A DNA stretch of 64,000 nt from Candidatus Micrarchaeia archaeon (GTDB lineage: Archaea > Micrarchaeota > Micrarchaeia > CABMEP01), in NCBI GenBank assembly GCA_038880755.1, contig JAVZRC010000004.1:6390-70389 (forward strand). The letters run 5' to 3'. Both the position numbers and the translations under genes were made by a program. The notes under the pieces were generated by a model. It was not told the origin of the DNA. It made no database searches and saw nothing but the letters and a program-made list of their open reading frames with translations. Every line of letters begins with the position of its first letter. Within the stretch, counting starts at the first letter, position 1. Positions 219-30,326 of the stretch are shown here, piece by piece.

Positions 219-3200
219 CTACATGAACTCTGCAAGATTGAACTGCTTGCTTGTTTCATCTTCGAATATAGATTGTATGTCTCTTTCAAGAAGCTGGATC
301 CTTTGCCTTAGATAATTTGGAAGATTATACTCATCTATCAAATTCTTAGTTATCTTAAGATACTTTTCTATTCCACCCCTATTCACAGTCAATAGAAGCT
401 TACCTCCGCATTTTGTACATTTTCCTGATAATGGAACTCTTCTATATTTCATATTGCAATCCACACATCTAACTTGCTGTGTGCTAAAGGAACGCAGATT
501 GCCATAGAGATCTGGAAGAAAGTGGCTCATTATAAGACGCTCGGCAGCATCTCTTGCATCTACTGCAGCAATTTTCTTTGCCAAACCTAATTGTGCACTT
601 ATTTTGTCTTTCATTGATTTAAGATACACGTATTGAGTTGTAAGTGCACCGTTATTCATATCTGGAGTATAATGAGTGAACCATAAATTATACGTTTCAT
701 TCTCCTTTCCTAATCTATCTGAAACGATCTCGATCTTGCATTCAGAAGGATGTGCAAATCTCCAGCTTGCTTCATAAAATGAAGATGGAAATCCTTGTAC
801 TACTTCCAATGCATGTACCTGGTCGTCAACCTCTGAAGGATCAATATGGGTCATCATAACAATTGGTGCATCCATCTGTCCTCCTCTTGTTACTGGAAGG
901 TAATGCTTTGAAAAGTTTAGCAATCCATCCATAAGAAGCATTATTGCATTCTCATCTCCATCACAATTGTGAGATAAAAGCATTCCCTTTCCACAGGCAA
1001 ATATCTTATCCTTATCTGATTCCAACTGAATGTCATAAACATATGGTTCAGGCAGGCATGACGAATCAAGATATTCCAATGATTTTATTTCCAAAACTCT
1101 GATGTCTTTTTCTGATTTGATGTATCTTCTAACTGTATTTAGTACCTTGTCTGTCTCTTTATCTTTTTTGATTAATTTCTCTATCACTTTCAATTTTCTG
1201 CCTTTTTCACCGATCAGATTAATTTTAGAGGCAATCTTTTTAGAATCGATTGAATATAAGCATACATAGTGCAGAGTAGTTTTTGGTGGCTCTCTTCCTA
1301 ATTTCTGATATCTATCTATTAAGAACTTGCTTGTGGTTGGTCTATCTTTTTCAATCTTTAATGTTGGTGACATTCCTAATCTAGTCAGTAGGAAATACAT
1401 TTTGGAGGCAAGCTTTTCTGACACAGTACAATACTTTACTTCACAATCATATACATTACCATCACCTTGATAGCATCCTCCCAAGAAAGCATAAATCTTT
1501 TCTTCCGGAAGATTAAATATCCAATCTGGAATGTCTTTAGTGTATGCATTATTTCCAAATTTGAGCTTTTCAGTAAAGAGTTTGTAGTATATTTTGCTTG
1601 TAATATAAACTCCTTTTTCATCTTCATATACAGGAACTTTTAGTGAGTGAATTATACAATTCTTAATATCCTGTCTAATTATTGGATCTGAAGCAGCTAT
1701 ACCTATATGATAGGATTCTTTGCCCTTTTTACTCGAACGCCATGCCCATCCTTCCGATATGTAATATCCAAATAATCTAAGCAATTTGTCTGTAATTTTT
1801 ATTTTTAAAGGAACTTTACCAAAGTTTCTCTTGAAACCTAACCAAAAATTATTTTCGCCTTCTTGTTTCAATTTCACATAAGAATACAATGGAATACTGT
1901 AAGGGGCCCTATAAAAGCTATTAATTATCTGTCTCTTCGACATATTAAGGTAGTCTCCTAGAGTTTTTAGATTTTTACCAAATCGCTTAATAACTTCTTT
2001 AGCAAATGATTTATTTGTTCTAACTGTCATTTTCACTGATTCTTTATCTTCCAAAAAAAACTCAAGTAGATCTAATTCATCTAATTGATTGACTTTATTT
2101 GGTTCATTGATTAGCGGGTTTTCTAAATTAACTTTATTCAATGAAGCAAGTAAATCATTTTCTGATAACTCTCTTACTCGTTTCTCTTTAAGTTGCTTGG
2201 TTTTGGGATCAAATACCCAAACTCTATGGTCTGGAGTAGCAATTATCTCCTGATTGTTCTGTGCAATAATCTTTACCAACTGCCCGGAATAAGGCTTTCT
2301 CATTATGAATTTTATTTTCTTTTCTTCCGCATTGCCATTTATGTCTGTACCTAATGCAAATACATTTTGATCTGTAAGATCAATCAACTCCCATTTTCCA
2401 TCAATTATCTTTGGTAAGTCTGGCCTCTTGGAATATCTAATAAACATTTCTGAGATGGTTGATGCATGCAGTTCTTCATCATTTTTATAGTACATCATTG
2501 TATTTCCTTGGAGGCAGTCACGACGACTTGCTGCAAATAAATATGGATGCGCATAACATACGTGTGCTTTTGTTGTTCCTATTATTCTGCTAGCAATGCC
2601 ACAAGAAGTATGCGGAGAAAGCTCTATAACCAAATGACCTATTATGTCTCTGTCTTCCTTCAAATTATAATACGGAGGAAGGCCGTAGATCTTGACCAGT
2701 TCATCATCTACAAATCTTGCAACCCTTGCCATGTATTTAAGGCATCTCTCTGATACTATCATATCATGCGGAAGAAGTTCCACGAGTTGATCCTCACTCT
2801 TTAGTTCATTTCCATATGCATCTTTGAGATAACCTAACTCTCTGAGCTTTGAAACTGGGGTTCCTATTTCGCGTGGATAAAAGTGAGTAACTGGAACATT
2901 TGTTGCATCAAATCTACATGTTCCATCTTTGAAAACAGAAACATCATGGACTGCTCTTAATATTCCTTTTTCTAAAGGCTCTGGAATCTTCAATTCGCTT
3001 ACCAATCCGTTCACGCATTTTACTTCTTCTGGAAGTACTTTTGTTTTAGCTGCTGCATCTTCCACAATCTCAACTATATTTATTGGTCTTGAATCATAGA
3101 AAACTGTCTTGGATTTTATCTCTTTTCCTGGCTTTGTCTGCACTGTAGAGCATATGTGAAATTCTGTTGCTGATGGTTTGCCGCATTTGCTGCATATTCT

Positions 3201-5252
3201 CTCTGGCTTTGTCTGCTTTCCGCATCTTTGGCATTTTCTTGAGAACGACAAACCGCCACAGAATGGACAGCGCATTCTTGCTATTTCTACTGTGACATCA
3301 TATTTTAGCTTCCTTGCTTTTGCATCTTTATATGCCTTAATTATGTTGCGAGTCTTGCCGCCTGCATTTCCAATTGGAAATAGAGAATGAACAGCAGGTT
3401 TCATATGTCGCTCTCTTGATTTTTCAGGCCTTCCCATTCTGCTCCCTATCCACGTACCTGCCTTGTCCCTAATTTTTATTCCAGAAAGAATTGAAACTAG
3501 ATCAACAGACCTTCCTTTTTCTTCGTCTGATTGTAATTTCAAACAATAATCATCTACCTTTTTCATAAGAGAATTTACCAACGATTTATCTGGTTTTTGT
3601 CCTGGCTGCAAACCTAAAGAAATGAATATTGATTTTGCATTTTCTCCTTCTATTATTATCTGATCTCTTTCTACCCTATGAGGAACTAGAAGTTTTTCAA
3701 GGATACTTTTTGCAGGGTCATATACTACTCTAAGCTCTTTTGGATTCAGAGGATTTAATAAGTCTGATTTCCATTCACCTGAAGAAAGCCAGTGTATCAA
3801 TTCCTTAACTTCATCATTCGATATGTTAGACCAGAAGAACGTAAATTTTGGATGCAAAGGAATGCCTGTCTCCTTTGAGATCTTTAGTGCAGTATCAAAA
3901 TCAACCTTATATGGATCTATATTAGAATAAATATTCTTCAGTTCTTGTTTCAATTCGATTGCATCTCTCAATTCCTCAAGCCACCATTCCTCATTATATC
4001 CTGCCGGGAGCAGAGGTGAATTTGATTTAAGGAAATCGCCGTATGAAACAAGAATGTCTCCAATGAAAAGAACTGTATGTACATTGTCCTTTATCTTTTC
4101 TGCATGCTCTCTGGATTCCACCCTAACAACTGAACCATCCTTAAGTCTAACAACTGGTGGTTCGATCGTCTCGCAAGGAGTGAGAACACATCCTTTTCCA
4201 GGTCTTTCAAGCTTGAATTGAGTTCCTATCGCTGGAAATGAATCAAGTATTATCATTGTAGCAGGATGTATTCCCTTCGCCATAAACCCGCTAAGCCTTG
4301 TTCTTCCGTATCTTAACCTGAATCCTCCGAATCTAGATGGATATGCAATTACTGGCCTACCTGCTACAACCTCTTCTATGTATTTTGGATTTGGCTCAAT
4401 CTTTGTAACTTTTGCTTCCTTTGCTTTTGGTGCTTTTATAACTGATTCAAGCCAGCTCCAATCAATTCCAAGCTTCTTTGCCTGGCCAAGAACCTTTGCT
4501 GCCTTCTGTGCAATTCCTTCACAAAGGACAAGGGCCATTCCTCCCCTTATCCTATTCGTCTCTATCCCCGGCACATTTCTATATGCACCCACTTCAAACT
4601 CTTCTGTTGGATCTCCTGTTACACATACAGGACAATTTCTCACTATGTGCCTAAACTCATCATCTGAAGGCTTGTATTGCAATCTTGCTGCCCTTGCATC
4701 ATAAAGTTCCATCTCCTCAAGATATCGTTCAACAGCGGTGTCTGTAGGTCTCCATTCTGCAAGGCCAATCTTTCTTCTAAGAAAATCTGCCAAGAGAACG
4801 CTAAGCGCTGCTGCGGTTCCCCCTGCAGATCTTATTGGACCTGAATAATAAACAGCAAGATACTCTGTGCCATCCTGATTCTGATGAATTTTAACACTTG
4901 AAATACCTTCAGTAGGAGCAACCAGAACTCCTTCTGTAAGAACTGCTGTCCCTGTTCTTAATGCCTGCTCTATAAGCTTCTCTTTCCCACCGAAATCTCC
5001 GAACTTTCCTTCTATGACTGCCTCAGCTGCCATAAATGCAATCTGTGTTCTTGATTTGTCATGCGGCAATGAACGTATGTATTCTGCGATTCCTTTTGGC
5101 CCTACAATTCCCTCCACTCTGGCTGCAAGATCTGGAGCAGGCACTATTTCAACTGAATCTGAAGGATCTATGCCTTTCTTCCTTGCCTCTGTTGCAATCT
5201 CATATATCTTTGAAATTTGCGACTTCATGTATTCGTCTGCAGAGTTAATCAT
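219..5252 (-). CDS. polC: DNA polymerase II (PolD) large subunit DP2, interrupted by an intein
   Basis: N-terminus EYMKSQISKIYEIATEARKKGIDPSDSVEIVPAPDLAARVEGIVGPKG matches archaeal DP2. Zn-finger clusters CPFCGG..CQRCG and CSKCGK are present, as is the RRD/CDGDEN catalytic motif. The ORF track starts at 5309, but the ATG at 5252 lies 4 nt after the DP1 stop and matches DP2 N-termini. Confidence 0.95.
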   Translation of the reverse strand: MINSADEYMKSQISKIYEIATEARKKGIDPSDSVEIVPAPDLAARVEGIVGPKGIAEYIRSLPHDKSRTQIAFMAAEAVIEGKFGDFGGKEKLIEQALRTGTAVLTEGVLVAPTEGISSVKIHQNQDGTEYLAVYYSGPIRSAGGTAAALSVLLADFLRRKIGLAEWRPTDTAVERYLEEMELYDARAARLQYKPSDDEFRHIVRNCPVCVTGDPTEEFEVGAYRNVPGIETNRIRGGMALVLCEGIAQKAAKVLGQAKKLGIDWSWLESVIKAPKAKEAKVTKIEPNPKYIEEVVAGRPVIAYPSRFGGFRLRYGRTRLSGFMAKGIHPATMIILDSFPAIGTQFKLERPGKGCVLTPCETIEPPVVRLKDGSVVRVESREHAEKIKDNVHTVLFIGDILVSYGDFLKSNSPLLPAGYNEEWWLEELRDAIELKQELKNIYSNIDPYKVDFDTALKISKETGIPLHPKFTFFWSNISNDEVKELIHWLSSGEWKSDLLNPLNPKELRVVYDPAKSILEKLLVPHRVERDQIIIEGENAKSIFISLGLQPGQKPDKSLVNSLMKKVDDYCLKLQSDEEKGRSVDLVSILSGIKIRDKAGTWIGSRMGRPEKSRERHMKPAVHSLFPIGNAGGKTRNIIKAYKDAKARKLKYDVTVEIARMRCPFCGGLSFSRKCQRCGKQTKPERICSKCGKPSATEFHICSTVQTKPGKEIKSKTVFYDSRPINIVEIVEDAAAKTKVLPEEVKCVNGLVSELKIPEPLEKGILRAVHDVSVFKDGTCRFDATNVPVTHFYPREIGTPVSKLRELGYLKDAYGNELKSEDQLVELLPHDMIVSERCLKYMARVARFVDDELVKIYGLPPYYNLKEDRDIIGHLVIELSPHTSCGIASRIIGTTKAHVCYAHPYLFAASRRDCLQGNTMMYYKNDEELHASTISEMFIRYSKRPDLPKIIDGKWELIDLTDQNVFALGTDINGNAEEKKIKFIMRKPYSGQLVKIIAQNNQEIIATPDHRVWVFDPKTKQLKEKRVRELSENDLLASLNKVNLENPLINEPNKVNQLDELDLLEFFLEDKESVKMTVRTNKSFAKEVIKRFGKNLKTLGDYLNMSKRQIINSFYRAPYSIPLYSYVKLKQEGENNFWLGFKRNFGKVPLKIKITDKLLRLFGYYISEGWAWRSSKKGKESYHIGIAASDPIIRQDIKNCIIHSLKVPVYEDEKGVYITSKIYYKLFTEKLKFGNNAYTKDIPDWIFNLPEEKIYAFLGGCYQGDGNVYDCEVKYCTVSEKLASKMYFLLTRLGMSPTLKIEKDRPTTSKFLIDRYQKLGREPPKTTLHYVCLYSIDSKKIASKINLIGEKGRKLKVIEKLIKKDKETDKVLNTVRRYIKSEKDIRVLEIKSLEYLDSSCLPEPYVYDIQLESDKDKIFACGKGMLLSHNCDGDENAIMLLMDGLLNFSKHYLPVTRGGQMDAPIVMMTHIDPSEVDDQVHALEVVQGFPSSFYEASWRFAHPSECKIEIVSDRLGKENETYNLWFTHYTPDMNNGALTTQYVYLKSMKDKISAQLGLAKKIAAVDARDAAERLIMSHFLPDLYGNLRSFSTQQVRCVDCNMKYRRVPLSGKCTKCGGKLLLTVNRGGIEKYLKITKNLIDEYNLPNYLRQRIQLLERDIQSIFEDETSKQFNLAEFM
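966..2516 (-). mobile_element. Intein (517 aa) with LAGLIDADG homing endonuclease in PolD DP2
   Basis: The extein motif AASRRD|CLQGNT...LLSHN|CDGDEN is split by the insert. The insert starts with Cys, has block B ATPDHRVWV, LAGLIDADG blocks LFGYYISEGWA and FLGGCYQGDGNV, and ends HN with a +1 Cys. It is in frame: aa 932-1448 of the ORF. Confidence 0.9.
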
Positions 5253-5256
5253 ATTA

Positions 5257-6744
5257 TCACTCAAATGCAACTTCACTTGTTGAGAAATCAACATGCGAAA
5301 CTCTTGCATTATGCATGTCGTAAATTCCCATTATTGCAGGGGTTGGGCTGAAACCTCTTCTTAACTGCCATGCGGTTGTCTTGTCAATCCATGTTCCTCC
5401 ATTCATTATCACACAACCCCTGTATTCTCCATATCCTATCTTATGAATGTGGCCAGTAAGAAACATGTCTATCTCTTCTATGAACATATAATCCTGATGT
5501 TCAGGGACAATCATACTCTTATCGAATATTGGAGACATGCTTCTTGTCTTTAAAAGCTCTATTGCAATCTCTTCAGGTCTTGCAAGTGACAATCCTTGAA
5601 CATCCTGAACTAAGGATTCCATTGTATAACCATGATACATCTGTACCTTCAATCCTTCAATATTCATGAATGCAGGATTTCCAACTGAATATGTTCTTCC
5701 GTCTTTTGCAAGCATGTCTTCTCCCAAAGAGGGCTGAGGCTCTGCATGCCTTACTGCATCATGATTTCCTGGGATTGCAATTATCTTTATATGGTCTGGA
5801 ACAAGCTCTAGGAACTGATTGAGAACTTTATATTGCTCGTAAACATCTTTTATAATGAGTTCTTTGTCCTGATTCGGATAGATGCCTATCCCATCTACTA
5901 AATCACCTCCTAAAAGCAAGTATCCCACTTTTTCTGCCAATTCTTTATGTGGGCCTGAACCATTAAGCCATTTGATCATATTCTCAAAATTCTTTGCCAT
6001 GAAATGAGAGCTCCCTACATGTATATCAGATATGAATGCAATAGCCATCTCCTTTTCTATCTTTTTCTTTTCTTTGAATGGAAGATCAGGCCAGGTAACA
6101 TCTGCAAGAATATTAAGGTTGGTTCCTTTCTTAATGTCGAATGCCAGAATCTCGTCATTAACTATCCTGTTGCTTTTTTCAAAAACCTGCTTGTTATCCT
6201 GGTTGTTAAGGACAAGAACCGCTAATGGGCCGGTTGGATCTTCTATCTGAAGCATTATGTGCTTGTTCTTTGTAATTGTTTTTGAAGAAACTATCCCTAT
6301 AACCCTCACTGTGTCTCCAACCTTCACATCTCCAAACTTCTCTATATCAATCAATGGAAATTTCACATTTGTTCTAGATACAAATAGATCCCTTATTTTC
6401 CTGTACCTGTCATTGAAATATTTTACAAAATCATCAAGCTCTCCCTTGCACTTTGATTTTCCCGTGATATCATGATCTTCGTAAATTCTGAATTCATGGC
6501 CATATTCCTTTGCAGTAGGATGAAAATCTGAAGAGCGCTTTACTTCAACAAAATCTGGCTTTTTGATCTGGTTGGTCAGTTCTCTTATGTCTGTTTCTGA
6601 AATAAAAGGAGAAGGAAGTGCTGCTATTTTCTCTATTATCTCTATTATTTGTTCGTCTTTAAGCTCTTTTAATGCCTCTGCCGCACCAGGCTTCAGAAGC
6701 TTGTTCTTCTGCCTGACTAGGCGATTGATTTCTTGAATATCCAT
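5257..6744 (-). CDS. polB: DNA polymerase II (PolD) small subunit DP1 (Mre11-like phosphoesterase)
   Basis: Calcineurin-like motifs are present: AFISDIHVGS, LLGGDLVDGIG, IPGNHD, GHIH. It sits immediately upstream of DP2. SD-like AGTGAT lies before the ATG. Confidence 0.9.
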   Translation of the reverse strand: MDIQEINRLVRQKNKLLKPGAAEALKELKDEQIIEIIEKIAALPSPFISETDIRELTNQIKKPDFVEVKRSSDFHPTAKEYGHEFRIYEDHDITGKSKCKGELDDFVKYFNDRYRKIRDLFVSRTNVKFPLIDIEKFGDVKVGDTVRVIGIVSSKTITKNKHIMLQIEDPTGPLAVLVLNNQDNKQVFEKSNRIVNDEILAFDIKKGTNLNILADVTWPDLPFKEKKKIEKEMAIAFISDIHVGSSHFMAKNFENMIKWLNGSGPHKELAEKVGYLLLGGDLVDGIGIYPNQDKELIIKDVYEQYKVLNQFLELVPDHIKIIAIPGNHDAVRHAEPQPSLGEDMLAKDGRTYSVGNPAFMNIEGLKVQMYHGYTMESLVQDVQGLSLARPEEIAIELLKTRSMSPIFDKSMIVPEHQDYMFIEEIDMFLTGHIHKIGYGEYRGCVIMNGGTWIDKTTAWQLRRGFSPTPAIMGIYDMHNARVSHVDFSTSEVAFE

Positions 6745-6934
6745 AAAATCACTGATGCTTACGCATCAAAACACGCGCATAAGACGCAGTGTCACAAAAG
6801 AATATTATGTTATTGCAGCTATGTATTTTTATATCTTGTCTAAGTTCGCTTCTAGTGATTATGTTTTAGAAAAATAGCTAGCGGTTAGGTTCAGAAAAAA
6901 GAAAGATTAAATACTCTTAACAATAAAGAATATT

Positions 6935-8275
6935 ATGGCTCAGCTGGCAATAGAACCAATAAAACAAGATATTTATTTAGAACAAGCAAAGAAAGTATTT
7001 GAATCAGCAAACATAAAAGCAAATGAAAATGAAATTAGAAAGATACAGGAATTTCTGAAAAAAAGTGAAAGATGGGTTTCATTGCAAATAAACCTAACAA
7101 AAATTTTATTGAATACTAAGGATAAAGAACTGCTTTTGAAGATTATTGACACTATTGACAAATTAGAGACCGATTCAAAAATTAAAGCACAGCTATTGAG
7201 TGGAATCGCAAATCTTTCTGATGATAAAATTAAAAGTGAGATTAATGCAGCTGTTCATTACATCCAAACTGAAGAGATGGAAAAAATAATTCCTAATTAT
7301 GAAAGCATATGCGGATTGGATGAAATTGTTTTTAGAATAGGAAGGCTTGGGATAAGAAAGAATAGGAGGGAAATGAAAGAGATAATGAAGATTTTTAATG
7401 AGAAAGAAACTGTGGATGCGGTAAAGAAACTAACTGAAAAATATAAAGATGCTGAACAGAAAGCAATTGCTGCAGGAGAAGTCATTCACTTGATATCCAA
7501 TTCAGAAATTAAGGATTTCATAGAATTAAGAAATAATATCATCGAAATAATACCTTTGGTAAAAGAAGAATACAATATAACACATTTCGGAAGGCATTCC
7601 TCAGGATTCATTTTGCAGCTATATAACTATGCAAAAAGCACTATGGGCAGTGAAACTGAAAAAGAGGGAAGTGAAAATAGTAAAAAGGAAAAGAAAAAGG
7701 AGAGAATTTTTATATTCGCTTATTCTTATTCTGACCACAACGGTGCATTCTACGGCGACTCAAAGCATAATGATGCATTAAGCAAATATGGAAAGACCAT
7801 CGCAGTAGAGGCAAGTAGTGATGTTGAACTCATGCTAATGATTGAAAAGATGTACAAGAAACATGGCTCTTTCAATGGGATTTTTATCGCAGGACATGGA
7901 GAGCCAACAAGAGTAAAATTAGGAAAGGAAGATAAGCCTTACTCTCTTTTTGATGTCAGCGACTATGACATTATGTCTAAGATAGGAAGCATGATTGATA
8001 AAGAAGATAAAAACAGCTTTATTGCGCTCATCTCCTGTTCAACTGGAAATGAGCAAAGCACAAGATCTCTGGCAAATATAATGGCATCTGCAGCAAGTGT
8101 ACCTTATGTTTATGCACCAGAAGACAGTTTTACAAAGTATAGCCTAAATATTGAAGAAGAAAATAAAGGAAAAAAGAAAAAAACAGGCAAAAAAATAACG
8201 GAAGAAAGAATAACAGTAGCTTATTATCGTGAAAAAGGAACAGTACAGACAATGGAATTTGGAATCAAAAAATAG
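6935..8275 (+). CDS. Hypothetical protein with a C-terminal caspase/CHAT-like His-Cys dyad domain
   Basis: The N-terminal half is helical. The C-terminal part has GIFIAGHGEP, then about 47 aa, then SFIALISCSTGN. This is the strand-HG / strand-C pattern of clan CD peptidases. Confidence 0.45.
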   Translation: MAQLAIEPIKQDIYLEQAKKVFESANIKANENEIRKIQEFLKKSERWVSLQINLTKILLNTKDKELLLKIIDTIDKLETDSKIKAQLLSGIANLSDDKIKSEINAAVHYIQTEEMEKIIPNYESICGLDEIVFRIGRLGIRKNRREMKEIMKIFNEKETVDAVKKLTEKYKDAEQKAIAAGEVIHLISNSEIKDFIELRNNIIEIIPLVKEEYNITHFGRHSSGFILQLYNYAKSTMGSETEKEGSENSKKEKKKERIFIFAYSYSDHNGAFYGDSKHNDALSKYGKTIAVEASSDVELMLMIEKMYKKHGSFNGIFIAGHGEPTRVKLGKEDKPYSLFDVSDYDIMSKIGSMIDKEDKNSFIALISCSTGNEQSTRSLANIMASAASVPYVYAPEDSFTKYSLNIEEENKGKKKKTGKKITEERITVAYYREKGTVQTMEFGIKK

Positions 8276-8350
8276 AATAAAGGATGGAGAGAATAAGGTC
8301 AAGATTAAAAAAATTATAAATTATAGGAATAATCTAGTTAGAAAATAAAA

Positions 8351-8614
8351 CTAATTAGAAATAGATTCTAATGCAGAAAGAATCTGCCATACTTGGGTTC
8401 TTGCATGCTGAGGAAGGTTTATATCTTCGCTTATTTCTTGAATGTAATAAATAGCTGCTCCTGCTCTGATTGTCGGGTCTCCTTTCTCCGTCAATCTCTT
8501 TTTTGCATCCTCAATTGCTTTCTTTACATTTCTTGGGACGCTCATGTCTTCGAGCATAAGATCAATAAGTGATATTATCTGGGAAATTTTCTGTTCTTTA
8601 TCGTTCTTAGGCAT
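8351..8614 (-). CDS. UPF0147 family small archaeal protein
   Basis: 87 aa. DMSVPRNVKKAIEDAKKRL...IRAGAAIYYIQEISEDINLPQHARTQVWQILSALE matches the conserved UPF0147 pattern. GAGGTGG SD is present. Confidence 0.75.
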   Translation of the reverse strand: MPKNDKEQKISQIISLIDLMLEDMSVPRNVKKAIEDAKKRLTEKGDPTIRAGAAIYYIQEISEDINLPQHARTQVWQILSALESISN

Positions 8615-8648
8615 AAAACCACCTCGGATGCCATTCAGATTGACTAAG

Positions 8649-8797
8649 CGGGCCCAGAGGGATTCGAACCCTCGACCTTCAGCTTGCTTCGAAACTTTTC
8701 CTTTGAGAAAGTTTCATCAAAAACCCTCTGATGAAACTCTTTTCTTAAAAGAGTTTCTTAGAAGGCTGCCGCTCTATCCAGGCTGAGCTATGGGCCC
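8649..8797 (-). tRNA. tRNA-Arg(UCU) with a 74-nt intron at the canonical 37/38 position
   Basis: Minus-strand parts: GGGCCCA/UGGGCCC acceptor, GCUC..GAGC D arm, GCAGC-CUUCUAA-GCUGA anticodon arm after intron removal, and GAGGG-UUCGAAU-CCCUC T arm. A BHB can be drawn: 4-bp CUUC/GAAG helix flanked by 3-nt bulges UAA and CAA. No encoded CCA. Confidence 0.85.
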
Positions 8798-8891
8798 ATG
8801 AGATATATATTGTATAACTGCATTAAAAATACTAACAATTATTGACTGTTTAAATTTAAAAAGATTAGTATTTGACCTCTCGATTATTATA

Positions 8892-9416
8892 TTATTTTTT
8901 CCTTGACTTGTATGCTGCTACAACTATTTCGGCGATCTGCTCTGGTGTGAATTTCTCTGTATTTATCTCAAGATCGAAATTTGAATGTACGAAAATATCT
9001 ATTCCATACAATGCAAGATATCTTCCTCTATTGTGATTGTCTCTCTCTTGAACGTGCTTCATTGCCTGTCTTAGTCCCATTCCATCCCTTATAGAAATCC
9101 TTTCAGCTCTTACCTTTTGAGAAGCAGACAACCAGACTCTTAATTTTGCCTCTGGCAGAAGCCATGGGCCTAACCAAGTAGAGATTACTGAGTCTGTTTT
9201 CCTTGCCTCCTTTGAAACCATCTTGTCAAATTCTCTGTCGATAGTAAGGTCTTTCTCAACATAAGCATGGTACTCCATAAGAGATATGCCCATCTGCTTT
9301 GCTGCATCCTTGAATGAAAGCTTTACTCTATTGAAACCTAGTTTTTTCGCAACAAGATCTGCCACCGTATCCTTTCCTGATCCAACCAATCCGCTAATGC
9401 ATATTATTTCAACCAT
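8892..9416 (-). CDS. cmk: Cytidylate kinase, archaeal type
   Basis: P-loop ISGLVGSGKDTVA. 174 aa. Overall similarity to archaeal CMP kinase, and the usual position next to the DUF106 gene. Confidence 0.75.
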   Translation of the reverse strand: MVEIICISGLVGSGKDTVADLVAKKLGFNRVKLSFKDAAKQMGISLMEYHAYVEKDLTIDREFDKMVSKEARKTDSVISTWLGPWLLPEAKLRVWLSASQKVRAERISIRDGMGLRQAMKHVQERDNHNRGRYLALYGIDIFVHSNFDLEINTEKFTPEQIAEIVVAAYKSRKK

Positions 9417-9466
9417 AAAATCTCCTCTCTTTGGAAAACATTTAGAAAATTGGATTTAAAATGATC

Positions 9467-9952
9467 TCAATTCTTCTTTTCTTTACCTTTAATTTTACCT
9501 ACTAAAAGCTGGGCGAAACCTCCTAGGAAAATAAATGAAAGCCAGAACCAACCGTATGCACCGAATGTATCTCTAAATGTAACACTAAATAAGGTGGGCC
9601 TAAATGGAACTGGGATCTGAAATGGAAGTATTATTGTGAAATTAGAGAACGAAGATTGGATAAAGGGGGGAACTAGCATTGCAAATGGAAGAAGAATTGC
9701 TAAAGACATGAATTGAAGCTTGAGAAGCTCAAAGGAATTTTTCTGGGACTCCTTCAGCTTAGGCTCAAGTTCATCGAGCTTTTTCATATCTTTCTTTGCC
9801 AATGCCTTGAAATATTCCTTATTCAATTCGTTGTTAAATTTTTGTATTTCCTGCATCCTTGTCGAAATGTTCAATTTCTTAAGAACATATGTTATTGCAA
9901 ACGATGATATTACAGCAGTAACTGAAATTATTATCATAACTGACGTATCCAT
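9467..9952 (-). CDS. DUF106 / EMC3-TMCO1-like membrane protein (archaeal Oxa1-superfamily insertase candidate)
   Basis: One N-terminal TM segment, then an amphipathic coiled region (MQEIQKFNNELNKEYFKALAKKDMKKLDEL), then C-terminal TM segments. This is the conserved neighbour of adk and cmk in archaea. Confidence 0.6.
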   Translation of the reverse strand: MDTSVMIIISVTAVISSFAITYVLKKLNISTRMQEIQKFNNELNKEYFKALAKKDMKKLDELEPKLKESQKNSFELLKLQFMSLAILLPFAMLVPPFIQSSFSNFTIILPFQIPVPFRPTLFSVTFRDTFGAYGWFWLSFIFLGGFAQLLVGKIKGKEKKN

Positions 9953-10071
9953 ATAAATCCACCTTTTACCTCAGATTTTTAAGATTTATCATAATTAAAC
10001 CATCGAACAACTTGAATGTAGATGTACTTGAATATAAATGTATAAGCATGACATAATATAAATGCAAACAG

Positions 10072-10092
10072 AATATAAAAATCTTTTGAAAT
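10072..10092. repeat. Left copy of a 21-bp direct repeat AATATAAAAATCTTTTGAAAT (candidate target-site duplication)
   Basis: Identical 21-mer at 14912-14932. Both copies lie just outside the inverted repeats. Confidence 0.7.
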
Positions 10093-10095
10093 ATA

Positions 10096-10297
10096 GGCTT
10101 TGTAGAAATCCTATGATGAGAAAATATGATTTCTTCATCATTAGAATACATAGATTGTAGACAAGTGCTTTCAGCTTAATTTCCTTCTTCTTTACCTCGA
10201 TGAGTCTGCTCTGCAGATCTCCACCAAATTTTCTCTTGATTGCAGAAAAGACAGTTTCAGCCATATTCCTTCTTCCATAAACTGTTTTATCAGGATC
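10096..10297 (-). pseudogene. DDE transposase C-terminal fragment (IS4/IS5-like)
   Basis: Minus-strand frame LDPDKTVYGRRNMAETVFSAIKRKFGGDLQSRLIEVKKKEIKLKALVYNL matches the conserved C-terminal Y..R..vE..Fs.iKr.fG...r block of DDE transposases. There is no upstream catalytic region. The frame reads into the terminal repeat. Confidence 0.6.
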
Positions 10298-10352
10298 TAA
10301 TTAAAAAGATTTTAAAAGAGTAGACGTGTATATAATTTTAGGAGGGGGTTTT

Positions 10353-10628
10353 ATGGTAGATGTCAATACCAAAAGTATTGAGGAAGCTATTACATCAAAT
10401 GTCAGGGACGCGCTGAACGGCGACAAAGAGGCATGTAAGAGATTGAATCTTCTGATTCAACTTCCTTTTTCTTCTATAAGAAAGCTATTTCATACTACTG
10501 AAGAATCAAAACATGCACTTGACCTGATCGCAGGAGTCAAGGCGACACAGAAAAATCCTGATAGAGATGCTGTGAGATATTGTGAAACTAACTTACCTGA
10601 GGTGTTGGGTAGGAAGATAAAGGTGTAA
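10353..10628 (+). CDS. Hypothetical small protein (91 aa), first gene of the cargo
   Basis: Strong SD AGGAGGGGG lies 5 nt upstream of the ATG at 10353. The stop is 2 nt before the next start. No family recognised. Confidence 0.55.
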   Translation: MVDVNTKSIEEAITSNVRDALNGDKEACKRLNLLIQLPFSSIRKLFHTTEESKHALDLIAGVKATQKNPDRDAVRYCETNLPEVLGRKIKV

Positions 10629-10630
10629 TT

Positions 10631-13600
10631 ATGCCAGAAGAAAAGAAGCCAAAAAGGTCAATAAAAGAGATTGTTAATGAGGCTAAGAAACAACACAAGC
10701 TACCAGAGTTGGTTGAATCTCTGAGAACAGATATTGAAAAGGCGAAGATGAGCAAGGAGGAGATCAAAGAAATTTACAGAGAGATTCCAAAGGACAGGCT
10801 GGAGAAGTACAAAGCGACAGCGAAGGAGATCGGCATCGAGCCGACAGCAGAGAATATCGTCGCACTTTACATTCAGGAGAAGTCGACGGAACAGATCAGT
10901 GCGATGCAGGCTATCCTCGCAAATGCAGAGACGTTAAGATCATTTCAGGAAGCACTCTCCACTGCAAAATCAATAATAGGTAGCGATGACCGCGCAATCG
11001 CCCTCAGCGAAATAGCCAAGGCACAGGCATCCTCAGGCATGACAAAGGAAGCAACTGCAACATTCCAAGAAGCAATCTCCACTGCAAAATCAATAGAAGA
11101 CAGCAATGACCGCGCAAAAGCCCTCATAGAGATAGCCAAGGCACAGGCATCCTCAGGCATGACAAAGGAAGCAACTGCAACATTCCAAGAAGCAATCTCC
11201 ACTGCAAAGTCAATAGAAGACAGCGATGAGCGCGCAAAAGCCCTCATAGAGATAGCCAAGGCACAGGCATCCTCAGGCATGACAAAGGAAGCAACTGCAA
11301 CATTCCAAGAAGCAATCTCCACTGCAAAATCAATAGAAGACAGCAATGACCGCGCAAAAGCCCTCAGAGAAATAGCCAAGGCACAGGCATCCTCAGGCAT
11401 GACAAAGGAAGCCCTCTCCACTGCAAAATCAATAGAAAATGATTATGACCGCGCAGCAGCCCTAAGAGAAATAGCTAAAGCACAAGCACAAGCAGGTATG
11501 ATAAAAGAAGCATCATCCACATTCCAAGAAGCAATCTCAACTGCAAAATCAATAGAAGATGATTATAACCGCGCATCCGTCCTCACAGGAATAGCCAAGG
11601 CACAAGCACAATCCGGTATGACAAAGGACGCATCATCCACATTCCAAGAAGCACTCTCCACTGCAAAATCAATAGAAGATGATTATTACCGCGCATCCGT
11701 CCTCACAGGAATAGCCAAGGCACAAGCACAATTCGGCATGTTCCAAGAAGCCATCTCCACTGCAAAATCAATAGAATATAGCGATTTCCGCGCAGAAGCC
11801 CTCGGAGAGATAGCCAAGGCACAAGCACAATTCGGCATGTTCCAAGAAGCACTCTCCACTGCAAAATCAATAGAAAATGGTTATTTCCGCGCATACGCCC
11901 TCAGTGCAATAGCTAAAGCCCAAGTACAAGCTGGCATGTTACAAGAAGCACTCTCCACTGCAAAATCAATAGAAAATGGTTATTTCCGCGCATACGCCCT
12001 CAGTGCAATAGCCATAGCACAAGCATCCTCAGGTATGATAAAGGAAGCATCATCCACATTCCAAGAAGCAATCTCTGCTGCAAAATCAATAATAGGTAGC
12101 GATGACCGCGCAATCGCCCTCAGCGAAATAGCCAAGGCACAGGCATCCTCAGGCATGATAAATGAAGCCCTCTCCACCGCAAAGTCAATAGAAAACAGCG
12201 ATGACCGCGCAGTAGCTCTAAGAGAGATAGCCAAGGCACAGGCATCCTCAGGCATGACAAAGGAAGCAACTGCAACATTCCAAGAAGCAATCTCAACTGC
12301 AAAATCAATAGAAGATGATTATAACCGCGCATACGCCCTCAGAGAGATAGCCAAGGCACAAACATCCTCAGCAAAATTAATCCAACCAGTCCAATACGAT
12401 ACGTTCATCTCCATGTTGCCATCGGCAGATACAACCCTGATCGGGGCGATAGGGATGCAACTCCCGCTGTCGGAAATGGACAAGGTTTTATCCTCGCTCA
12501 AGGATCCTGTCAAGAGAAAAAGGGCAGAGATGCTCATGACAGAGGCGAGGACAAGCCTTTACCATATCTACAATATATCTGAAGAGGAGAAGGAGCTGCT
12601 CTTCAACAAATACAGGGAAGAGTTTAGAAGCTACCTCTCAAAAGCCGAGGAGCACAAGCACTATGAGCTGAAACTGATCTCAAGGATACTCTTCAATCTT
12701 GATGTCTCCACCGGCGAGCACACCTCATTCGCACTGCTCTTCGATGCGGCAAAGAAGCTTCCGGCCGGATCAGACGCTATCAACAGAATACTCTACACCC
12801 TTGCAGAGATGGACAGCTATAAAGGCAAGGATCTTGTGATGCAGATGATATCGAAAGGCAGTCTGGATCCAAGAGTAGAGTGGCTGCTCCTCCACAAGCT
12901 ATCGGAGACAAAATACCTGGATCCGACGCTGCCACAGTTCTACGAGAAAGAGATCAAAGGCACTTCGGGCAAAGAGAATACAAGCAAGAAAGCGGAAATT
13001 TTGGAGACGATAAGAAAGCTCAAATCCGAAGTCGGAATCAATCCAGACTCCAGCATACTAGACTTCCTGCTCAACAAAAAGATAAAAGACAGGGAAGGGA
13101 AGGAAGCTGTGACAGTGGACGAGAAGATCGCCCTCGCCAAGGAATATAAGTCAGAATTCGATAGAATAAAAGACAAGGATGCGCTTGTCTCCTCCCTCTC
13201 CAAGGACAGGACAAAGGCGATATTCTACTTCATACTCTACGGAGGAAGGACAAGGTTCTCCCTGGTCAACAATTACGACAGCTCCAAGTTCATGAAGGCA
13301 CTGGAGGTTGCGTCTAATCTGGAAATCCATAACGGTCCATTGGATGAGTTCGTATCCATGATGAAGGACAAGAATGTGAGGGAGAGGCTTCTTGCCGGCA
13401 CCTTCCCTGTCACCGGAGAGAAATACTCCAAGGAGATCAGGGTGGACGTTTCCAATTCAGAAGAGCTGTCATCTATAGAAAAATTCGCATCAGAGATATT
13501 CGGAAAGAACCAGATGGGCGCCATACTTAAGGTGAAACACTACATGAACCGGCTGAGGGAGATGGGAGACAATGACCTCGCAGATAGGATAAGCAAGGCA

Positions 13601-14620
13601 GGCGGACTGGCAGACCTTCCACAGCTCCTCTCAGAAGCAGAGTCCAGGCATCCAGAGCTGGTTGTGGAAGTAGAGAAGAAGCATTCCGTCCTGTGGAGCA
13701 AGATGGCAGAGAAGAAGATTTTCTCAATGTCCCTCTATGCTGCATTGACAAACGATGCGAATAAGATCAGTATCAAAGAGCTGATCAAGAATATTGAAAT
13801 CCAGAGGAAGGCGCTGGAGTTCGCTGTCAGGCAGCAGTACAAGGCGGGAGCCATAGAAAAGATGGTCCGCGACGAGAGACTTGAGGCGCTGCAGGAGAAG
13901 AGCAAGGCGAAGTTGCTCGCCTACCTGCTGAGCGAAACGATAAGATCAGACACAGAGATAGAGAACAGGCTTCTTTCGGAATGGCAGGCTCATCTAGACC
14001 AGGTATTCCAATCATACGACAGGCTGGGTGCGGCCGAAACTGAAAGAGTAAAGGAAAGGACAGTGGTCCTGAGATACCTGGACAAGAGAGAAGACCTGAT
14101 AGAGTGCCTGAGGTTCGCGGACTCAGCACAGTGCTGCTTCAACAGCAAGAACTACAGGATAGAAGGTCACAATGTAGGGGCGCTGGAGTGGATAGCAAGG
14201 ATATGGAAGGATCCGCTTTCGTTCGTATTCCAGATTGAGGCGCCAGAAGCAGAAGGAACAAGAAATGCGATAGGCTTTGTTTTCGGCAGCTTCGGCATCT
14301 TTGAAGGCAAGCCTGCTGTCCTGCTGAACGGAGTTTACATGGAAGGGAGGACAAAGACGGCTGCGCATAGCATCCTTGCTACAATAGAGAATGATTTTAG
14401 CCGTCCTCTGGGCGCAGTAGCACAGTTCGTTGCCTCGAGGCATGGCGGTTCGGTGGATATGCCGAAGGAGTATTCGAACAAACAGGTGACGGTCAGGAGG
14501 CTGCGTGCGATAAAGGGTAGCGATGGAAGGCCGGAGACTGAAGTGTACGATGATATGAATGTAGGGGCGAACAATGAGTCCACAACAGATGGCAACTTCT
14601 GGCACAAAGAAATATCCTAA
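10631..14620 (+). CDS. Giant hypothetical protein (1329 aa): 13 TPR-like alpha-helical repeats plus an uncharacterised C-terminal region
   Basis: Long ORF with an AAGGTG SD. Repeats follow the form FQEAISTAKSIEDSNDRAKALIEIAKAQASSGMTKEATAT. The C-terminal region carries CLRFADSAQCCFNS and NGVYMEG motifs of unknown family. Confidence 0.8.
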   Translation: MPEEKKPKRSIKEIVNEAKKQHKLPELVESLRTDIEKAKMSKEEIKEIYREIPKDRLEKYKATAKEIGIEPTAENIVALYIQEKSTEQISAMQAILANAETLRSFQEALSTAKSIIGSDDRAIALSEIAKAQASSGMTKEATATFQEAISTAKSIEDSNDRAKALIEIAKAQASSGMTKEATATFQEAISTAKSIEDSDERAKALIEIAKAQASSGMTKEATATFQEAISTAKSIEDSNDRAKALREIAKAQASSGMTKEALSTAKSIENDYDRAAALREIAKAQAQAGMIKEASSTFQEAISTAKSIEDDYNRASVLTGIAKAQAQSGMTKDASSTFQEALSTAKSIEDDYYRASVLTGIAKAQAQFGMFQEAISTAKSIEYSDFRAEALGEIAKAQAQFGMFQEALSTAKSIENGYFRAYALSAIAKAQVQAGMLQEALSTAKSIENGYFRAYALSAIAIAQASSGMIKEASSTFQEAISAAKSIIGSDDRAIALSEIAKAQASSGMINEALSTAKSIENSDDRAVALREIAKAQASSGMTKEATATFQEAISTAKSIEDDYNRAYALREIAKAQTSSAKLIQPVQYDTFISMLPSADTTLIGAIGMQLPLSEMDKVLSSLKDPVKRKRAEMLMTEARTSLYHIYNISEEEKELLFNKYREEFRSYLSKAEEHKHYELKLISRILFNLDVSTGEHTSFALLFDAAKKLPAGSDAINRILYTLAEMDSYKGKDLVMQMISKGSLDPRVEWLLLHKLSETKYLDPTLPQFYEKEIKGTSGKENTSKKAEILETIRKLKSEVGINPDSSILDFLLNKKIKDREGKEAVTVDEKIALAKEYKSEFDRIKDKDALVSSLSKDRTKAIFYFILYGGRTRFSLVNNYDSSKFMKALEVASNLEIHNGPLDEFVSMMKDKNVRERLLAGTFPVTGEKYSKEIRVDVSNSEELSSIEKFASEIFGKNQMGAILKVKHYMNRLREMGDNDLADRISKAGGLADLPQLLSEAESRHPELVVEVEKKHSVLWSKMAEKKIFSMSLYAALTNDANKISIKELIKNIEIQRKALEFAVRQQYKAGAIEKMVRDERLEALQEKSKAKLLAYLLSETIRSDTEIENRLLSEWQAHLDQVFQSYDRLGAAETERVKERTVVLRYLDKREDLIECLRFADSAQCCFNSKNYRIEGHNVGALEWIARIWKDPLSFVFQIEAPEAEGTRNAIGFVFGSFGIFEGKPAVLLNGVYMEGRTKTAAHSILATIENDFSRPLGAVAQFVASRHGGSVDMPKEYSNKQVTVRRLRAIKGSDGRPETEVYDDMNVGANNESTTDGNFWHKEIS
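10944..12370 (+). repeat. In-frame tandem repeat array (13 units of 99-120 bp) inside the giant gene
   Basis: 120-bp periodicity with near identity: lines 11041, 11161 and 11281 are identical apart from a single A/G difference in the 11161 copy. 99-bp units occur around 11860-12000. A ~75-bp exact copy of 10960-11040 recurs at 12083-12160. Confidence 0.9.
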
Positions 14621-14911: not shown

Positions 14912-14932
14912 AATATAAAAATCTTTTGAAAT
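14912..14932. repeat. Right copy of the 21-bp direct repeat AATATAAAAATCTTTTGAAAT
   Basis: Identical to 10072-10092. Confidence 0.7.
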
Positions 14933-14971: not shown

Positions 14972-15562
14972 CTATATTTTCCATGAATAAATTTTAGATA
15001 TAATTCTATCCAATTCCATCACGCTTTCCTTTAGCTTTCCTTTTCTATTTATAATAATGTAATAAGGTTTTCCGGTTGCTGCAGAATAAACGTTTATCAT
15101 CGAAAGAGAAACCTCACGAAGAGCATTGATGTCATTGGCAGTGAAAGTTGGGCGTTTTCTGCTAACATCTAATTCCCTTCTTTCAAGAATCTCATTGGTT
15201 GGAGCGTCTATAAAAATAAACGCATCGATAGGCACTGAAGAAAGAAGTTCGTATGACAATCCAGGCATATAGCCCGAGGGCTTTTTTAGAGCAGCATGGG
15301 TGTCAAGAAAAAGTATACGTCCAATTTTTGATTCTTTTTTTTCTATAGAATTTATTTCAGATATTGCTAAATTCTGAATTTTTTTATGCTGTGATTCTGG
15401 CAGATTGTTGATTTCGTCTCTATTTGTTACATTAAATTCATTTTTTGCAAACCTTAAAACAATGTCTCCATAATTTAGTACTGAAATTTTTTTATTTTTC
15501 TTTATTAGCTCCCTGAGAATTGTAGACTTCCCGACTCCAGGAAGTCCCATTATAACAATCAT
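14972..15562 (-). CDS. adkA: Adenylate kinase, archaeal type
   Basis: MIVIMGLPGVGKST P-loop at the N-terminus. 196 aa. Located downstream of secY as in most archaea. Confidence 0.85.
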   Translation of the reverse strand: MIVIMGLPGVGKSTILRELIKKNKKISVLNYGDIVLRFAKNEFNVTNRDEINNLPESQHKKIQNLAISEINSIEKKESKIGRILFLDTHAALKKPSGYMPGLSYELLSSVPIDAFIFIDAPTNEILERRELDVSRKRPTFTANDINALREVSLSMINVYSAATGKPYYIIINRKGKLKESVMELDRIISKIYSWKI

Positions 15563-29021: not shown

Positions 29022-30002
29022 TCAGAACCATAAAATCTGTGGCTTCTGCACAGAATTATTCCTTATGGATTTTCTAAGGAATACGAATCTCTTTTGAGTT
29101 CCTGGAACCGAACCCTTAACGCATATAAATGAAGATTTTACATCTCCATAGTGTGGATAACCTCCAGGAATATTAACTTTAGATGGATCATCTCCAATCA
29201 AAAGGATTCTATTATTATATTGAGTTCTTCTATGGAATCCATGTTGACCTGCCTGTGGAGTAGTATACATAACATATGCTGGATGCCATGGACCTAATGT
29301 ACCTCTATGCCTTACTCTCCCTGTATTCTTAGGTCTTTGTTTGTGAACACCAAATCTTCTAATAACTCCCTGCCAACCATGTCCTCTGGTTACTGCTACT
29401 GCATCGACATATTCTCCTTCTTCAAATACTTGATTTGGAGTTATGTCTTTTCCGATTATCGATTTAACATACTCCAATTGAGAATTAACATCATTTCCAC
29501 CTATTGCTATTTCAACTGTGTCCCCTGTCTTCTTTGGAATTCCTGCTTCTTGTGGATTTGTTATTGCAAGAACTGAAATATAAAGATCTTTTTTATCTTC
29601 GTCTTTAAATGAAGATATTTTTTCTTCTAACCATTTTATATCGTTTCTTTTCTTATCTTTCTTTGATACGCCCAACATTGATGCTACTTTTGCATTGATT
29701 GAAAGAGCATCACCTAAACACTTAGTCCCGGTAAGGGTTTTCTGATAAAGTCTTGCACCGTAGATAGTTATTTTTGGTGCTTCTAAAACAGTAACTGGCA
29801 CTGTTAATTCCATTCCTTTTGTTGCGGATCTGGAATCGTCTATCATTCCTGCTTGCTTCATTCCTACTTTATAGACTGGATATCCCAGTAACTGCACTTT
29901 ATCAGTAATTCTCCAAGTTCGCATTCTTGGAGTAATATCTTTCGAACGTTTTCTTGGTTTAAATGCAAGAGAACCTGCTCTTGGCTTAATAACTTTTCCC
30001 AT
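29022..30002 (-). CDS. rpl3: 50S ribosomal protein uL3
   Basis: VTRGHGWQGVIRRFGVHKQRPKNTGRVRHRGTLGPWHP. Confidence 0.95.
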   Translation of the reverse strand: MGKVIKPRAGSLAFKPRKRSKDITPRMRTWRITDKVQLLGYPVYKVGMKQAGMIDDSRSATKGMELTVPVTVLEAPKITIYGARLYQKTLTGTKCLGDALSINAKVASMLGVSKKDKKRNDIKWLEEKISSFKDEDKKDLYISVLAITNPQEAGIPKKTGDTVEIAIGGNDVNSQLEYVKSIIGKDITPNQVFEEGEYVDAVAVTRGHGWQGVIRRFGVHKQRPKNTGRVRHRGTLGPWHPAYVMYTTPQAGQHGFHRRTQYNNRILLIGDDPSKVNIPGGYPHYGDVKSSFICVKGSVPGTQKRFVFLRKSIRNNSVQKPQILWF

Positions 30003-30068
30003 TTACCATCACTTTGTGAATTATGAATATGAATACTAAACTATATATGAAATGCTTTCAGTTCTATA

Positions 30069-30182
30069 GCGCGGTAGTGCATCAAAGATGCAGTATACCT
30101 GTCACGTATCAAATGATACGTGAGTCTCTCGCGTTAATCGATCGCAGAGACCGCTTTGCCGGGAAACGATCTAAAAATCGTT
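30069..30182. ncRNA. Structured GC-rich element between rpl3 and the rubrerythrin gene (operon leader or small RNA candidate; strand unresolved)
   Basis: Perfect hairpins at 30078-30092 (TGCATC/GATGCA), 30102-30123 (TCACGTATC/GATACGTGA) and 30165-30182 (AACGAT/ATCGTT), plus an imperfect hairpin at 30125-30150. A GCGG/CCGC closing stem joins 30071-74 with 30051+100, that is 30151-54. G+C is locally elevated within an AT-rich spacer. Confidence 0.35.
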
Positions 30183-30326
30183 AATATATAATATTATATT
30201 AGATTTATAAATATTACTATACCTAGCTTAACTTATCTTTTGCATTAAAAAACGTAAATAAACACGATATATTTATGAACATTTACAATCAAATATATAT
30301 TTGTGTCTAATTTTGGAGGTGTTGAA

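Follow-up and report, generated by a model that had tools for sequence, protein, structure and literature searches.

A mobile two-gene locus in a Micrarchaeota chromosome encodes a repeat protein with a predicted GNAT-fold C-terminal domain

In the toxin-antitoxin systems TacAT, AtaRT and KacAT, the toxins are single-domain proteins of ~160-180 residues, and antitoxins of the ribbon-helix-helix (RHH) or helix-turn-helix (HTH) type bind the toxin domain; TacT and AtaT acetylate aminoacyl-tRNA. The fold of Gcn5-related N-acetyltransferases (GNATs) has the element order β1-α1-α2-β2-β3-β4-α3-β5-α4-β6-β7, in which the α1-α2 loop shapes the acceptor site and a bulge in β4 normally makes the oxyanion site. 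TON_1535 of Thermococcus onnurineus is presumably an α-solenoid of unknown function. To our knowledge, very little is known about the proteins that DPANN archaea use toward their hosts or viruses. In this report, we analyze a gene pair in a 64,000-nucleotide stretch of DNA (hereafter, the window) from a Candidatus Micrarchaeia archaeon (assembly GCA_038880755.1, contig JAVZRC010000004.1). The pair consists of a large multidomain open reading frame (ORF) of 1329 residues (10631-14620, + strand) and, directly upstream, a partner gene of 91 residues (10353-10628, +; AGGAGG at 10340-10345). We found that the large protein ends in a domain with a predicted GNAT fold, borne behind a long array of helical repeats, and that the partner follows the N-terminal module of the large protein rather than its repeats or its tail.

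The C-terminal domain was modelled as residues 1130-1329 (14018-14617, +), with a conserved core starting at L1147 (14069). AlphaFold2 (AF2), supplied with a 48-sequence alignment, gave a model with a predicted local distance difference test score (pLDDT) of 90.4 and a predicted template-modelling (TM) score of 0.86. Its elements run β1-α1-α2-β2-β3-β4-α3-β5, followed by C-terminal strands. All 50 of the Protein Data Bank (PDB) matches listed by Foldseek, together with the annotated matches in BFVD, are GNAT-type acyltransferases (probability 1.0, E 1e-4 to 1e-5, TM score 0.4-0.5). Over its full length, the model is matched best by the protein acetyltransferases NAA80 (6NBE), Gcn5/PCAF (5TRM, 4NSQ) and NatD (4UA3); AAC(3) (1BO4) is also among the nearest structures, and the toxins AtaT and KacT are at ranks 13 and 40. 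Searches of Pfam, NCBIfam and PDB sequences returned no match to this domain. We propose that it is a new subfamily of the GNAT superfamily, placed there by its predicted fold only. The original prediction, made from the letters of the window, had treated the last ~750 residues as a single domain, to be abandoned as novel if it mapped to a well-known housekeeping family. It divides instead into a helical region of ~550 residues and a GNAT-fold domain of ~190 residues, and what Foldseek identifies for the latter is the fold of a superfamily rather than a housekeeping family.

A set of 135 sequences, 35-60% identical to the window protein and drawn from both archaea and bacteria, shows where this domain is constrained. 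D1164, C1169, G1215 and D1308 are invariant in all 135; in the 48-sequence set, the invariant residues are D1164, C1169, P1195, G1215, F1216, N1233, D1307 and D1308. Counting near-invariant positions as well, the list comprises D1164, C1168-C1169, D1194-P1195, G1215-F1216, N1233-G-x-Y1236, E1253, G1272-G1273, R1292-A1293, Y1306-D-D1308 and N1314. The cysteines belong to the block CLRFADSAQCCFNS at residues 1159-1172, which had been singled out in the original prediction, and the codons from Asp1164 to Cys1168-Cys1169 (14120-14137, +) lie within the motif R-x-A-D-x3-C-C-F-x-S. The conservation of polar and reactive residues suggests that the domain is catalytic. In GNATs, the acceptor site is shaped by the α1-α2 loop, which makes D1164 and C1169 candidate residues for catalysis or for binding of the acceptor. 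Further, N1233-G1234, in the NGxY bulge of β4, occupies the usual position of the oxyanion site in the model, and may have that role here.

The domain defines a family of at least 224 protein clusters, patchy in its distribution. A word-indexed search of 5.8 billion proteins found four members, including the window's own. An alignment of these four, run with HMMER against all 1.84 billion representatives, detected 247 clusters at a cut-off of E <= 1e-3, of which 224 reach E <= 1e-10. The segment common to the whole family is the last ~180 residues, and in 130 of the 135 full matches no more than 30 residues separate the end of the domain from the C-terminus. What a distant subfamily has in common with these proteins is the domain alone (hhalign E 6e-46, 176 columns), with no similarity upstream. 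In 35 full-length and 10 distant members, Pfam recognizes repeats of the tetratricopeptide (TPR) or PPR type, or nothing. A scan with two peptide patterns from the C-terminal domain located it in twelve named genomes: two Micrarchaeota, members of the candidate phyla radiation (Moraniibacteriota, Parcubacteria), Bdellovibrionales, Elusimicrobiota, two Polyangiaceae (myxobacteria), Gammaproteobacteria and unclassified metagenome-assembled genomes (MAGs). This list, which is not a census, leans toward episymbionts and predators. In most members, including all of the bacterial loci recovered, the GNAT-fold domain has neither a partner nor a conserved neighbor. Literature searches on TPR proteins, acetyltransferases and polymorphic toxins of Micrarchaeota or DPANN, and on TON1535, turned up no description of the family. 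As a side observation, a Parcubacteria MAG (L016) and a Pseudomonadales MAG (L017) carry, at 3700-10600, closely related members of ~1620-1640 residues together with the same three downstream ORF families; given the very different phyla assigned to them, one of the two bins is probably misassigned.

At its other end, the large protein begins with a charged, helical module of 85 residues (10631-10885, +) that is 42-70% identical across eight loci and has no significant match in Pfam or the PDB. Since homologues conserve these first 85 residues, the ATG at 10631 is the genuine start of the protein. The TAA of the partner ends at 10628, leaving a gap of 2 nt. Public annotation of the same genome carries the large protein both as 1238 residues (P0001, starting at Met92) and as 1329 residues (P0161), and the partner both as 61 (P0010) and as 91 residues; conservation among homologues supports the longer form in each case. 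The partner matches nothing in Pfam, NCBIfam or the PDB, and no DNA-binding or antitoxin domain is recognizable in it. By hhalign, it and the N-module are not paralogues.

Homologues of the partner form seven clusters with 66-81% identity. Each intact copy is followed at once, at a gap of -4 to +9 nt, by an ORF beginning with the N-module (loci L004-L009 and L025-L030), and the decayed copy in L023 holds the same position. Among full-length homologues of repeats and tail, the three closest have another N-terminus, of ~130 residues, and no partner. Behind the N-module, the cargo changes. Our survey of it was a metagenome scan seeded with the partner, and thus covers a handful of short metagenomic contigs. 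In L004, the closest orthologue (61% identity, with the same partner and N-module), a receiver domain (Response_reg, 42 bits, above its cut-off) stands between the N-module and the repeats, and the GNAT-fold domain follows. The cargoes of L028 and L030, complete proteins of 311 and 273 residues, are PIN-like, with sub-threshold matches to PIN_4/PIN_12 and four conserved acidic positions. L025 encodes a 358-residue protein with an unassigned domain and canonical TPRs, L007 and L029 (truncated by their contigs) have HEAT-like repeats, and L026 has the same TPR-like repeats as the window protein. The partner thus tracks the N-module irrespective of cargo. Their co-occurrence indicates that the two probably form a complex. 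We know of no description in archaea of a small partner with an N-terminal handle and changing cargo in this form. The original prediction had expected the pair to co-occur elsewhere, and it does so in at least eight further contigs; it is the N-module that the partner accompanies, and neither repeats nor tail.

The gene pair lies on a 4.8-kb island in the Micrarchaeota (DPANN) chromosome. Its large gene has 47.9% GC, with 53% GC at third codon positions (GC3), compared with 30% GC3 in SecY and 28% in a neighboring 446-residue ORF (reference level ~29%). The island is bounded by a 21-bp exact direct repeat, AATATAAAAATCTTTTGAAAT, with its left copy at 10072-10092 and its right copy at 14912-14932, 39 nt beyond the stop of adenylate kinase. 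These are the only two exact copies in the 64-kb window, and three matches at <=3 mismatches were reached in none of 100 shuffles. Were the 4.8 kb between them removed, a spacer of ~180 bp would separate the flanking genes, which encode an EMC3/TMCO1-like membrane protein (9467-9952, -) and adenylate kinase (14972-15562, -). Just upstream of the pair are the last ~38 codons of an IS5-family transposase (10151-10264, -; NCBIfam NF033579, E 3.9e-7, profile positions 250-287 of 289). In L004 and L005, an IS66 transposase adjoins the pair, and in the closest homologous locus an intact one has the equivalent relative place.

Over window positions 29-35 kb, the gene order is also that of a relative, L023 (GCA_025059735.1, a contig labelled Candidatus Micrarchaeota), whose proteins there are mostly 76-87% identical (L3 87.5%, rubrerythrin 87%, DXR 76.5%); the source of the window is therefore a Micrarchaeota (DPANN) archaeon. 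Between rubrerythrin and L3, L023 carries a decayed version of the pair, in which an in-frame stop interrupts the partner and only 140 residues of the large gene are left; the corresponding site in the window is empty. The foreign composition, the insertion-sequence (IS) remnant, the flanking AATATAAAAATCTTTTGAAAT repeats and the differing position in L023 therefore argue for recent insertion, and the mobile cassette of the original prediction stands.

In archaeal contigs, members of the family are repeatedly found bordering ribosomal-protein operons. The window pair follows adk/SecY, the L001 gene (3525-7436) is 700 bp upstream of S17, the L023 gene (4211-4633) is directly upstream of L3, and those of L004 (5917-9294), L005 and L010 are 4-6 kb from S2; no such placement is seen in L002, L007, L009 and L026. 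This could reflect a preference in insertion site or a functional tie to translation. Also near L3, upstream of its gene (29025-30002), the window has a non-coding stretch of ~150 nt (30066-30217, -) that matches L023 4773-4925 at almost 100% identity, as against just 76-87% for the proteins encoded on either side. It has two hairpins whose stems are kept and whose loops differ, and no Rfam match at E <= 1. We consider it a candidate ribosomal-operon leader or non-coding RNA of Micrarchaeota.

Between the two ends of the large protein, residues 106-583 (10946-12379, +) form 13 tandem TPR-like helical hairpins, of which seven are 120 bp (40 residues) and six are 99 bp (33 residues). The longer unit is the shorter one plus a seven-residue extension, K[ED]A[TS][AS]TF. 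Pfam TPR_12 recognizes the array with 95.6 bits (E 2e-27, cut-off 30.1), and TPR_30, TPR_2, TPR_7 and TPR_1 are also above their cut-offs. The array is thus recognized by TPR profiles as tandem helix-turn-helix units; its period of 33 or 40 residues differs from the canonical 34. Tandem Repeats Finder reports a period of 120 at 10941-11412 (3.9 copies, 94% matches, no indels). Out of 99 bases, 94-97 are shared among units 2-4 and 94 between units 1 and 11. Within this last pair, a stretch recurs exactly, at 10962-11042 (+) in unit 1 and at 12078-12158 (+) in unit 11. The ORF, its 13 repeats and both periods are as the original prediction had them; the exact recurrence it reported is real, and measures 81 bp rather than ~75.

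Recent duplication with likely variation in length, also foreseen there, is supported by these near-identical units and by alleles in the family. P0004 and P0162 differ by 103 residues, and P0023 and P0166 by 40 + 193 residues, each pair being identical over all aligned residues; P0023 and P0168 (97% identical) show seven-residue switches between 33- and 40-residue units. Such whole-repeat indels support copy-number variation, a pattern that collapse in short-read assembly could mimic. Many codons are the same in all 13 units, and nonsynonymous variation clusters at unit positions 12-15, 18 and 21-22, which fall in the loop between the helices and on the second helix of the hairpin. The variable positions are broadly alike in three homologues. 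A fixed framework with variable positions would fit a binding surface under diversification. The array itself is an ordinary kind of feature, and a clear case of recent expansion.

The repeats are followed by the helical middle region (residues ~584-1129; 12380-14017, +), with the motifs YFILYGGRTRF, FGKNQMG..K..Y and EW.AH. These ~550 residues are conserved in part of the family only and are not shared by the distant subfamily. Profile searches of PDB sequences gave no significant match to this region or to the 750-residue tail as a whole, and a scan of a genome collection with middle-region patterns found nothing. An AF2 model of the 750-residue tail from a four-sequence alignment, which is too shallow, had a pLDDT of 51. 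In it, roughly the first 290 residues of the middle region (its residues 20-290) reach about 60-89 and most of the rest is below 50, as is the C-terminal domain. Foldseek matched this model to ARM/HEAT-type folds, none significantly.

Given these features, we suggest that the locus is a horizontally moving accessory module of two genes, in which the choice of a target would fall to the repeats and its acylation to the GNAT-fold domain, with a role in conflict or interaction rather than in housekeeping. We favor this reading tentatively, at a little below an even chance. The mobile island, the patchy distribution, the decayed copy in a relative, the hypervariable repeat positions and the swapped cargo are the reasons for favoring conflict or interaction. 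In the scheme we envisage, the 91-residue protein and residues 1-85 of the large one would be made by coupled translation and would assemble into a "handle" complex, which may regulate, stabilize or localize whatever cargo is fused behind the N-module. The 13 TPR-like hairpins and the ARM/HEAT-like region would bind a target macromolecule, in all likelihood a protein. The terminal domain would then move an acyl group from an acyl-CoA-type donor to the bound target, with Asp1164 and Cys1169 of the α1-α2 loop and the NGxY bulge on β4 as the candidate catalytic or acceptor-site residues. The setting is likely to be conflict or interaction between host and symbiont or with mobile elements, and the protein would probably act in a cytoplasm. 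A bolder form of this idea, which we regard as less likely than not, is that the handle is a device specific to Micrarchaeota (DPANN) for delivering or controlling polymorphic effectors (GNAT-fold acyltransferase, PIN-like nuclease, repeat binders) against the host archaeon or mobile elements, and that the Cys/Asp GNAT-fold tail is a new class of effector enzyme common to episymbiotic and predatory microbes.

Several results weigh against the acylating module that we favor. The GNAT assignment comes from predicted structure only, at TM scores of 0.4-0.5 and E about 1e-4; helix α4 is not predicted, and a GG-containing loop takes its place. Motif A of GNATs, Q/R-x-x-G-x-G/A, is absent: the family consensus is NGVY-x3-[KR]-T-x-x-A (in the window protein, NGVYMEGRTKTAA), so that a basic residue and small residues are present at the site and the canonical glycines are not. 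Hidden Markov models of GNATs score below threshold, with Acetyltransf_1 and Acetyltransf_3 each matching one of 48 domains at E about 0.09, and hhalign against E. coli RimI gave a probability of 0.15%. Hallmarks of conflict systems are also missing. No transmembrane segment or signal peptide is evident in the large protein, as originally predicted (maximal 19-residue Kyte-Doolittle mean 1.4, with a highly charged N-terminus). When the ORFs of 21 loci were compared all against all, the partner was the sole conserved neighbor, with no common downstream ORF family that could be an immunity gene; downstream in the window, there is just a 61-residue antisense ORF without a match. PADLOC-DB 2.0 gave generic TPR and STAND_TPR models on the repeats and nothing for the partner or the neighboring ORF. 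The viral contigs searched hold no relatives of the partner, the N-module or the C-terminal domain, so a viral origin is unsupported. Finally, the receiver domain of the closest orthologue fits ordinary intracellular signalling at least as well. The description "defence-type" in the original prediction thus has no direct support, with generic TPR matches in PADLOC and no conserved neighbor or immunity gene; taken as a whole, that interpretation is partly supported.

These points bring other explanations into play. Were the locus a toxin-antitoxin or abortive-infection module, the partner would restrain the large protein through the N-module, the repeats would sense a protein of the invader, and the GNAT-fold domain would block translation, for instance through acetylation of aminoacyl-tRNA like that by TacT and AtaT, a role that PIN-like cargo would take in sister loci. 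The small upstream gene, so tightly coupled or overlapping (-4 to +9 nt), is what one would look for in such a module; GNAT and PIN-like folds are both classic folds of type II toxins, and AtaT and KacT are among the fold matches. The mobile island, and the swapping of effectors on a constant module that is typical of defence systems, are also in keeping with it. However, the partner has no recognizable DNA-binding or antitoxin domain and tracks the N-module rather than the toxin fold, and most members, including all the bacterial loci recovered, have neither partner nor conserved neighbor. The large protein is moreover ~8 times the size of the GNAT toxins of toxin-antitoxin systems, and PADLOC reports TPR only. 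We therefore regard this explanation as improbable. We are about equally doubtful of ordinary intracellular signalling, in which a scaffolded protein acyltransferase would be the output of a pathway, with repeats that recruit endogenous substrates, a co-regulating partner and no role in conflict. It would account for the receiver domain between N-module and repeats in the 61%-identical orthologue, for the lack of both a secretion signal and a transmembrane segment, for best fold matches that are protein N-terminal and lysine acetyltransferases, and for a gene that often adjoins ribosomal-protein operons. Such a pathway sits less well with a GC3 of 53% against about 29%, IS remnants, a variable chromosomal position and a pseudogene pair in a close relative. 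The same is true of a distribution so patchy that the word-indexed search found four proteins among 5.8 billion, and of hypervariable repeat positions and swapped cargo.

Least probable, in our estimation, is a non-catalytic scaffold, in which the GNAT-fold domain has lost catalysis and binds a ligand or a protein, the whole molecule being an adaptor or structural. The missing motif A for acetyl-CoA, the unpredicted α4, the want of any sequence match to active GNAT families and the predominance of helical repeats in the protein all speak in its favor. Set against these, the Asp, Cys, Asn, Tyr and Asp-Asp residues do not vary among archaeal and bacterial members of just 35-60% identity, a pattern like that of an active site, and the fixed terminal position is usual for effector domains.

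The window is an archaeal chromosome, with PolD and MCM (both with inteins), primase and aminoacyl-tRNA synthetases; the public record matched to it is assembly GCA_038873695.1. It holds a long ribosomal-protein operon that ends in L30-L15-SecY-adenylate kinase. The large subunit of PolD, DP2 (219-5309, -), and MCM (49333-53010, -) contain one intein each, with a LAGLIDADG homing-endonuclease domain. The 446-residue ORF (6935-8275, +) lies outside the island, has a host-like GC3 of 28% and matches DUF4347 only weakly (E 0.015); a GHG...SCSTG pattern in its C-terminal half recalls His/Cys peptidases. Rfam places a tRNA at 8649-8797 (-, 51.4 bits), which spans 149 nt and presumably contains an intron; ARAGORN reports none there. 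Long ORFs antisense to the large gene (10945-11421, 11980-12255 and 14123-14605, all -) were rejected as genes and are by-products of the repeats and of composition; their "homologues" at other loci are antisense to the same large gene. Two known classes were likewise tried for the large protein and set aside. It has no NTPase domain, which rules out a STAND/NTPase defence protein. Nor does the pair read as an HTH-TPR receptor of the RRNPP type accompanied by a peptide gene: the partner lacks a signal peptide and is upstream, and no HTH match to the N-module is significant.

The C-terminal domain is compact, confidently modelled and supplied with clear catalytic candidates, and thus offers a testable enzyme domain. 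If it proves to be an ordinary regulatory acetyltransferase, it would still be a new GNAT subfamily, of modest interest. The array, with its fixed framework, hypervariable positions and copy-number variants, offers a system for the evolution of binding specificity.

How, then, does this locus compare with known systems? To the GNAT superfamily, the C-terminal domain is likened by its predicted element order, α4 excepted, and by all of the PDB matches listed. It differs in that no GNAT sequence model matches the window family, motif A is replaced by [KR]-T-x-x-A and α4 by a GG loop. Further, the window family has an invariant Asp...Cys-Cys-Phe-x-Ser in the α1-α2 region and a Tyr-Asp-Asp near the C-terminus, and it places the domain at the end of helical proteins of 900-2700 residues. 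The repeats recall TON_1535 (PDB 3ZPJ) in their hairpin pattern ..A..I.d...R..AL..IA, which is the sole significant PDB sequence match, a weak one (phmmer E 2.6e-7) and to the repeats. Unlike the repeats of TON_1535 and TPR_12, the units of the window protein have 33 or 40 residues rather than 34, combine a very uniform framework with hypervariable positions, and are fused to an enzyme-like domain.

TacAT, AtaRT and KacAT share with the window locus a small upstream gene that is translationally coupled to a GNAT-fold protein. In the window, however, that protein has 1329 residues, and the partner has no known domain, follows the N-module and also accompanies PIN-like, TPR and HEAT cargo. The partner does not co-vary with the GNAT domain, and the pairing of a small single-domain toxin with an RHH or HTH antitoxin that defines type II toxin-antitoxin systems is not found. 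Polymorphic toxins with small adaptors, such as LXG/Lap of the type VIIb secretion system or Rhs/PAAR-Eag of the type VI secretion system, differ in another way: no secretion genes were seen in the neighborhoods examined, no secretion apparatus, signal or trafficking domain was found at loci of the window family, and the 21 loci have no downstream immunity gene. By analogy, they resemble the window locus in having a constant N-module with an upstream partner, variable C-terminal domains (nuclease-like ones included), a terminal enzymatic domain and mobility. A conserved N-terminal region with interchangeable C-terminal domains is indeed what we found. The new elements here are an unannotated GNAT-fold subfamily and a handle, made of partner and N-module, with interchangeable cargo; the rule that the partner stays with the handle while the cargo changes parallels the logic of polymorphic effectors.

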